DNA of 63,581 bases, the filler included, from Sluysia triapertura (Eukaryota): assembly GCA_046118255.1 (NCBI GenBank). It is 5 parts of 5 records of this genome, joined end to end, with 100 filler letters (N's around TTAATTAATTAA, not from the genome) between each part and the next. Parts side by side here need not be neighbours in the genome. Positions count along the whole stretch, not along the records: positions 13,624 to 27,831 come from JBJNIA010003559.1; 4 more parts are not named here. One strand, 5' to 3'. Made by a program: the position numbers and the translations under genes. This document shows positions 22,442-23,640 of the stretch, piece by piece. The notes under the pieces were generated by a model. The model had not been told where the DNA came from, did no database searches, and saw only the letters and a list, made by a program, of their open reading frames with translations. Numbering within the stretch: position 1 is the stretch's first letter; each line of letters begins with the position of its first letter.

Positions 22442-23640
22442 TTGACATTAAAATATTTAAAGTACTTAAGTAGTTATGTTTTGAATATTTTAACCACTCA
22501 AACAAATGAGCCAAATAATGAGAATGACTTAGTTGATTCGATAATTATATTAGATAATGAAAAGGAACAGCCAATAGTTGAATTAGATGATAAAAGAAAA
22601 ATGGACACTCCCAAACCATCGTTAATTGAAGAGGTAAAGGCATTTCTTTCTGAATTAGAAAATGATGATGATATCGATAAGAATTTAGATAAAATTTTGA
22701 ATTTAGCCTTAAATATGTTTAATGCACAGAGTATCAAATCAAGTGAAGCCAGTAATCCTCATCAATATAAAGCAAGAAAACTATTAAAAAAGATTGCATT
22801 GATGGAAAGAAAAACAGATCCACGAATGTTAATGAAAATTAACATATCATTAAATGGACTTATCAATATGTTCATGGAATTACCAGTAAATTCTTTGTTT
22901 CAAGACATTATAACATAATAAAAACAAACGATCCATCAATTTTGAACGTATACTTATTTTACAATAATAGATATTTAATACCTACAGACTTTCTTAATGA
23001 TTATGGTTATCCATTAGGGAACCACGAGAAAATGACAAAAGCTACTACTACTAATAAGACTGCTGAATATGAAACCTTATTCGAAAATATATCGGATGAT
23101 GAAGTAAATTTGAACCCTCAATCATTTGTAAGAAAATTAATTGATAAAAATGACAATGAAATAACGAAAAATAATGATATAATAGAAGAACCTGATTACA
23201 TAGTGGATCTTAATAAAAACACACACATTGAAACCAGTGATAAGGAAACAAAAACAAAGACGGCCTGGTCACCCAAGAAAAATGAAGATATATTAATAAC
23301 ACCTAATCATGTTCGAAAAAACGTTATAGATTTGACAAAATTAAAAGACGAAAATGAAGAGGAACCAATGGAATTAGATACAAAAAACATAGTTTATGCC
23401 TTTTTATCTAATACATTTACAAATTTCAGTAAGTATAAGAAACTATTACCTAAGTTAAAAGAATATAAGAATGATGTAATAAAATAATAAAGCAATTAGA
23501 AGAAAAATATAAAGATTTCTTTACTTGTTTTAAATATTTACCCAGCACCAAATCAGAATTAATGGAATTTCTAAAACATTTTCTTTTTTCGAAAAACCCT
23601 ATTTTTGTATTTTTTAATATTTTAAAAGATCCTAACACAA
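22442..23640 (+). pseudogene. Retroelement-borne acidic SIM-rich protein with ubiquitin-like domain (copy 1, frameshifted)
   Basis: ORFs 22442-22918, 22942-23487 and a tail to about 23640 join through single-base shifts. UBL at about 22832-23013. Collinear protein homology to about 32740-33480. Confidence 0.8.

Follow-up and report, generated by a model that had tools for sequence, protein, structure and literature searches.

The stretch of Sluysia triapertura DNA analysed here (63,581 nucleotides, filler included; hereafter the window) contains the same multi-copy element twice, in both cases decayed, with short peptides resembling SUMO-interacting motifs (SIMs) around a likely ubiquitin/SUMO-like domain (UBL). 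A sequence-only reading of the locus had proposed that a retroelement encodes here a poly-SIM plus UBL protein able to sequester or degrade SUMOylated silencing factors. The locus therefore raises the question of whether these peptides would bind SUMO and what they would do for the element. We propose that they may form a SUMO-docking module within the polyprotein of a Burro-like retroelement, a reading to which we assign a probability of about 0.5.

The window as a whole is eukaryotic, with 23% GC. Copy 1 (approximately 22520-23630) carries frameshifts near 22915, within the UBL, and near 23484; copy 2 (approximately 30717-33494) is broken by several frameshifts and stops. Both lie on the plus strand, and their features are collected in Table 1. 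Gaps or masked runs occur at 13524-13623, 27832-27931, 40324-40423, 51988-52087, 54597-54766 and 55302-55429, contiguity across them not being assured, and one such run separates the two copies.

Table 1. Features of the two copies (positions are those of the window).
Feature	Copy	Position	Strand	Remarks
IIILDNE	1	22541..22561	+	hydrophobic core matched in copy 2 by PIIVL
IVELDD	1	22574..22591	+	single core here in copy 2, so one 5' motif is unmatched
Helical segment before UBL (probable)	1	22616..22770	+	homolog of copy 2 32744-32896, score 55; helicity by eye
UBL	1	22832..23013	+	split by frameshift near 22915; both halves align to copy-2 UBL (also by tblastn)
PDYIVDLNKN block with IVDLN (23200)	1	23191..23220	+	8/10 residues common to copy 2
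VIDLT (SIMb-type) with acidic tract DENEEE	1	23323..23364	+	order VIDLT-KLK-DENEEE
Conserved, probably helical domain after SIM	1	23377..23630	+	frameshift near 23484; 3' limit approximate
Primer-binding-site-like 18-mer	2	30717..30734	+	upstream of gag; sole match to its pattern on either strand
Gag capsid region	2	30909..31558	+	PF03732, E 1.8e-5, 25.3 bits (cut-off 24.1)
Asn-rich, charged, acidic linker	2	31560..32740	+	PIIVL (32697) at its end
UBL	2	32988..33170	+	PF11976, E 0.0021, 18.3 bits (below cut-off of 23.8)
Linker with IIDITNDND (33368) and LVNLN (33428)	2	33212..33493	+	aligned to copy 1 until near 33480

The relationship between the copies is carried by four consecutive homologous pieces, namely the helical segment, the two halves of the UBL and the linker. 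Identity is about 40-44% in the aligned protein pieces and reaches 72% in the best DNA block, and the observed scores were attained by 2 of 1000 shuffles for the helical segment, by 0 of 1000 for each UBL half and by 0 of 500 for the linker. Homology of copy 2 to copy 1 stops near 33480, short of the place of VIDLT. Downstream of its linker, copy 2 is interrupted by a further stretch, part of which is an inverted match (73% identical) between 33549-33639 and 29636-29719.

That the peptides belong to a retroelement protein, as had been claimed, is supported by the Gag region lying upstream of them in copy 2. The candidate start codon of this Gag is at 30909, and its frame is broken before 31046. 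Ten of 12 letters of the primer-binding-site-like sequence fit the 3' end of tRNA-Met(CAU) as listed in supplement 1 of PMC13524379. No C-x2-C pattern of a CCHC knuckle occurs in any forward frame of 30901-32900 in this decayed copy. Reverse transcriptase, integrase, Env and other pol families were absent from the ORFs of the window that were scanned (148 of 245 filtered short ORFs in one scan), and no second LTR was found in the window; both copies are truncated. Because no CCHC knuckle, pol, env or second LTR was found, we call the element Burro-like only.

Other members of the family were revealed by run X1, a single sequencing run that contains the stretch and is possibly its source sample (and is thus not independent evidence of presence): 7454 of its contigs align to 29500-36500 and 483 to 23150-23450. 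No RNA dataset containing the stretch was listed. Homologues were found neither for the UBL piece (0 of 123 candidates among longer proteins, 0 among 1.84 billion representatives) nor for the Gag piece (0 of 372 candidates), and related loci were found among none of 267 metagenome contigs and none of 16 viral contigs.

All seven peptides of the original list were found at their places (in copy 2, PIIVL at 32697 and LVNLN at 33428). The peptides of the proposed cluster thus exist; they do not lie within one open frame, and the cluster as a whole does not exceed chance. This was assessed with 5000 shuffles of copy 1 (354 aa) and copy 2 (323 aa) and eight SIM regular expressions, including SIMb, [PILVM][ILVM]DLT. 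The loose SIM patterns proved not to be enriched. In copy 1 the loose core was observed 7 times against 4.84 in shuffles (P 0.20) and the reverse core twice against 4.84; the ELM-like patterns gave 3 against 2.19 (parallel, P 0.37) and 2 against 1.73 (antiparallel), and SIMa and SIMr had no match. Throughout the six frames of the window the loose core recurs at 29 per 1000 codons. The earlier caution that short SIM patterns arise easily is true for most of the list, with the exception of VIDLT. The SIMb pattern was found once in copy 1 against 0.02 expected (P 0.02 uncorrected, about 0.16 after correction for eight patterns), and VIDLT is its sole match in the 127,158 six-frame codons of the window. 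A further pattern, [VI][VI][DE][VIL], gave 3 against 0.20 in copy 1 (P 0.0004) and was the only one to pass in copy 2 (2 against 0.20, P 0.017); it was, however, picked after the motifs had been seen, and one of its two matches in copy 2 (IIEL, 33063) sits in the UBL helix.

Judged by its sequence, VIDLT is the one strong motif of the set. Its core is identical to that of PIAS1 SIMb, which PMC3901395 describes as optimised for mono-SUMO, and an acidic stretch follows in both cases, as also in the RNF4 array. The comparison with PIAS/RNF4-type SIMs thus stands with regard to the PIAS1-type core and its acidic tract. It does not extend to a tandem poly-SIM of the RNF4 kind, since 41 residues separate the two best motifs, which thus form no tight array, and copy 2 offers a match for just one core of the close 5' pair. 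In contrast to PIAS1 and RNF4, there is no SP-RING or RING, and copy 1 has a basic KLK between core and acidic tract, unlike PIAS1 SIMb.

Conservation between the two copies is uneven. The block around IVDLN reads PDY[IL]V[DN]LNKN across them, although in LVNLN of copy 2 the acidic core residue is replaced by N. Of the 5' hydrophobic cores, one is retained (IIIL or IVEL in copy 1, IIVL in copy 2), the copy-2 frame lacking the acidic follow-on. IIDITNDND (33368) has no SIM-like counterpart in copy 1: aligned as DNA, its IIDIT falls within a 60-base insertion, and aligned as protein it faces KLIDK. The VIDLT region is absent from copy 2, as it lies beyond the end of homology.

The 3' motifs were also examined across the family, using the 483 contigs at least 80% alike on 23150-23450, a threshold which itself favours conservation. 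Thirty-six sites varied in at least 12% (all were listed), and 18 of these are silent, against an expected silent fraction of 0.265 (P 0.002). Among polymorphic sites at a depth over 5000 the proportion is 15 of 19 (P 3e-6); the low-depth linker and the sites at which copy 1 stands apart from almost every other copy each give 2 of 10. Given this excess of silent sites, the frame at 23150-23450 was a protein under purifying selection, from which copy 1 has since drifted. IVDLN has no variant site among the aligned contigs, and in VIDLT and DENEEE alike a single site varies, silently; the two codons between VIDLT and the acidic tract do vary. The expectation that the motifs would be conserved relative to their flanks was borne out only in part: the 3' cores are free of amino-acid change, but they are not significantly better conserved than other well-covered codons (0 of 10 changed against 9 of 58, P 0.22). 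For extended blocks the contrast is 0 of 19 codons, compared with 15 of 99 over the stretch (P 0.03), the blocks having been defined post hoc, and as IVDL lacks silent variation too, its block may simply be homogeneous. Peaks of contig depth over the motifs were dropped as proof because contig depth cannot rank parts, and an LKDE pattern at 23341 was rejected as a SUMOylation site, two of its codons differing from nearly all aligned depth.

The UBL lies about 690 codons past the Gag start in copy 2. Its best Pfam family is PF11976, covering model positions 1-61 of 72, and the last strand is not evident; ubiquitin/Rad60-SLD families appeared in Atlas rows at 0.86-0.87, which serve as leads only. 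Single-sequence models were poor (pLDDT 56 and 58, low confidence). With the low-confidence UBL model, the ubiquitin-fold chains listed by Foldseek had E of only 4.5-8.6 and covered some 35 residues, and VIA-align gave no Z of at least 5, and PDB sequence searches yielded no ubiquitin, Ulp1 or Bcl-2 match. The di-glycine expected of a conjugatable modifier is absent (GG occurs in none of the 8 pieces checked), so the UBL would serve for docking and not as a tag. Inspected by eye, its second strand and its helix (NITMELPITSTIEDIIELL) are acidic, without counterparts of the basic residues that line the SIM groove of SUMO, Lys39 and Lys46 (PMC12751080). A complex prediction for the copy-2 UBL and the copy-1 VIDLT stretch scored 0.01, which gives no answer either way. 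In both copies the UBL is followed by an acidic D-D-E/D-V-N/D-L stretch (23089-23110 and 33254-33274), which we take to resemble a caspase or protease site.

The segment after VIDLT shows amino-acid change in 2 of 21 codons and is thus well conserved too, which weakens the case for special conservation of the motifs. It has been called Bcl-2-like by eye and position only, and this call is unconfirmed: no family matched it in Pfam, PDB, Atlas or fold search, its BH4-like hexamer arises in 12% of shuffles, and both Trp and Gly are absent from 23475-23765. IF3/SepF-like folds proposed for a model of 23475-23765 had no E under 0.001 and were treated as meaningless.

Several neighbouring pieces were also noted. 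A GC-richer (about 0.40), broken piece at 33966-34730 (plus strand) carries a C2H2-like finger (zf-C2H2 E 0.057) and Ulp1/C48-like motifs (Pfam C48 E 0.14) in two frames and is multi-copy; its catalytic motifs are His-Trp at 34424 and Gln...Asp-Cys-Gly at 34603. Lying about 0.9 kb past the copy-2 linker, it is a candidate SUMO protease, probably of a separate NeSL/LIN-like or Ginger-like element. Its Ulp1-like part (34361-34730) was rejected as a component of the present element in these copies, given the rise in GC from about 0.27 to about 0.40, the unrelated stretch between them and the different continuation of copy 1. A Ddi1-like UBL-protease fusion after copy 2 was likewise discarded, as no protease family matched the ORFs scanned. 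Farther away, a YTH (YTHDF-like) gene occupies a single ORF at 9661-10383 (plus strand; PF04146 E 9e-38, best database identity 46%). ORFs without stops, 90-240 codons long and some of them GC-richer than their surroundings, occur at 910-1227, 4234-4797, 27934-28714, 35122-35457 and 47006-48399, and no Pfam family matched these five at E 0.02 or better.

The closest known systems by description are Burro and GYPSM1, giant gypsy-like LTR elements of dugesiid planarians. In section 7 of PMC6431247, their polyproteins comprise retrotrans_gag, CCHC knuckles, an 'Ubi2/SUMO-like (PF11976)' motif and then BCL-2, and the elements are suggested to meddle with ubiquitination and apoptosis. The present element shares with them an N-terminal Retrotrans_gag, a long charged region, a domain that here matches PF11976 below the cut-off, and a further domain after it, as well as thousands of copies, and the same source reports decayed fragments with stops and frameshifts in Dugesia japonica. 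It differs, as far as that description allows comparison, in that neither the two or three CCHC knuckles of Burro nor MATH were seen here; these fragments also lack BIR, ankyrin, Env and Pol, and the UBL begins only about 690 codons past the start of Gag. The element may thus be termed Burro-like by description, short of established membership. Probably it is a gypsy element of Burro type with a flatworm as host; the YTH tree (a long branch with no placement) is uninformative on the host. The GAG-ENV-POL errantiviruses of Platyhelminthes (Smed_errantivirus_1-6), LTR gypsy elements with a long Gag-Pol interval (PMC13524379, in part), offer another plausible home for the fragment, although their Env and Pol are not in the window. 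In the main text of that paper, 'ubiquitin' and 'SUMO' have 0 occurrences, and no primer-binding site is listed for the six Smed elements in the part available.

The claim of an undescribed system cannot be upheld as made, since PMC6431247 already reports a SUMO-like domain in gypsy polyproteins of planarians and suggests that these meddle with host ubiquitination. SIMs go unmentioned in that account, and our literature searches, whose coverage did not extend to Grohme 2018 and Jurka 2007, found no description of SIMs in Burro-like elements. What appears new is the SIM beside the UBL in such an element, resting on one strong motif, while the SUMO-like domain in a gypsy polyprotein is known. 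Parts of the SUMO pathway have a precedent in the Ulp1-type proteases of Ginger1, Mutator, NeSL and Utopia transposons (PMC2836005 and PMC4640811, in part); theirs are enzymes, whereas here a binding motif and a SUMO-like domain are found.

In intact members, a long Gag-led protein would hold the UBL, flanked by acidic linkers, within one polyprotein, from which the protease of the element would release the SIM/UBL part. VIDLT would then bind SUMO on host proteins with the help of the acidic tract, and IVDLN, 41 residues upstream, would perhaps assist. The adaptors Rad60, Esc2 and NIP45 combine non-conjugatable SUMO-like domains with SIM-like motifs in acidic linkers. The arrangement described here resembles theirs, but it has one UBL, placed inside a retroelement protein, with a weak Pfam score and no sequence homology shown to these adaptors. 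By analogy, the UBL may be a non-conjugatable docking surface, and the module would act as an adaptor placing the element protein at SUMO-rich sites, not as an enzyme destroying SUMOylated factors.

The main challenge to a docking module, less probable in our opinion yet to be taken seriously, is that the motifs do not bind SUMO: in a protein rich in Ile, Asp and Asn they would be stretches of hydrophobic and acidic residues with another use, for instance as protease cleavage sites between domains or for packing against the folded domains next to them. Sites of gypsy proteases may resemble such stretches. The motifs lie at domain borders, similar V-x-L stretches recur (EVNLN, DVDLD), and both the shuffle-like frequency of the loose patterns and core conservation no higher than in neighbouring codons agree with this explanation. 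It accounts less well for a perfect VIDLT with its acidic tract adjoining a PF11976-like domain, for the rarity of SIMb in shuffles and for the lack of amino-acid variation in the cores. Binding of the peptides to the element's own UBL, by which the polyprotein would fold back or copies would be linked in particle assembly, appears the most improbable of the alternatives: peptides do stand on both sides of the UBL in the same protein, but the acidic character, judged by eye, of the second strand and the helix of that domain, which lack the basic groove residues, speaks against this.

The original proposal, an anti-silencing factor that would sequester or degrade SUMOylated silencing proteins and let the element escape piRNA or heterochromatin control, we regard as biologically reasonable but improbable. 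Its premise holds for Drosophila, where transposon repression needs SUMO (PMC10363806); viral SIM proteins counter host SUMO pathways (PMC12751080, as available), and the family has reached many copies. On the other hand, none of the papers listed deals with SUMO-dependent transposon silencing in planarians, and the motifs lie far apart, with only some of them common to both copies. Degradation in particular is unsupported, as the two copy-1 frames carrying the motifs (22436-22915 and 22843-23484, the fragments of the polyprotein covered here) contain neither Cys nor any ligase signature such as the RING that SUMO-targeted ubiquitin ligases (RNF4, ICP0) join to their SIMs. An elaboration in which a PIAS-grade SIM and a SUMO mimic, cut from the Gag polyprotein, would dock on or titrate SUMOylated piRNA/heterochromatin factors seems to us equally doubtful; if true, it would be the first anti-silencing device based on SIMs to be encoded by a transposon of an animal.

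Returning to the docking module, Burro-type polyproteins carry many captured host-like domains, for which the review calls for experiments (PMC6431247). A perfect PIAS-type SIM under selection beside a SUMO-like domain offers a concrete and cheap test of the job of one such domain. Should SUMO binding fail, the locus would be an ordinary pair of decayed retroelement fragments; should it prove true, these elements would be linked to the SUMO pathway of their host, the one that silences transposons in flies and worms.
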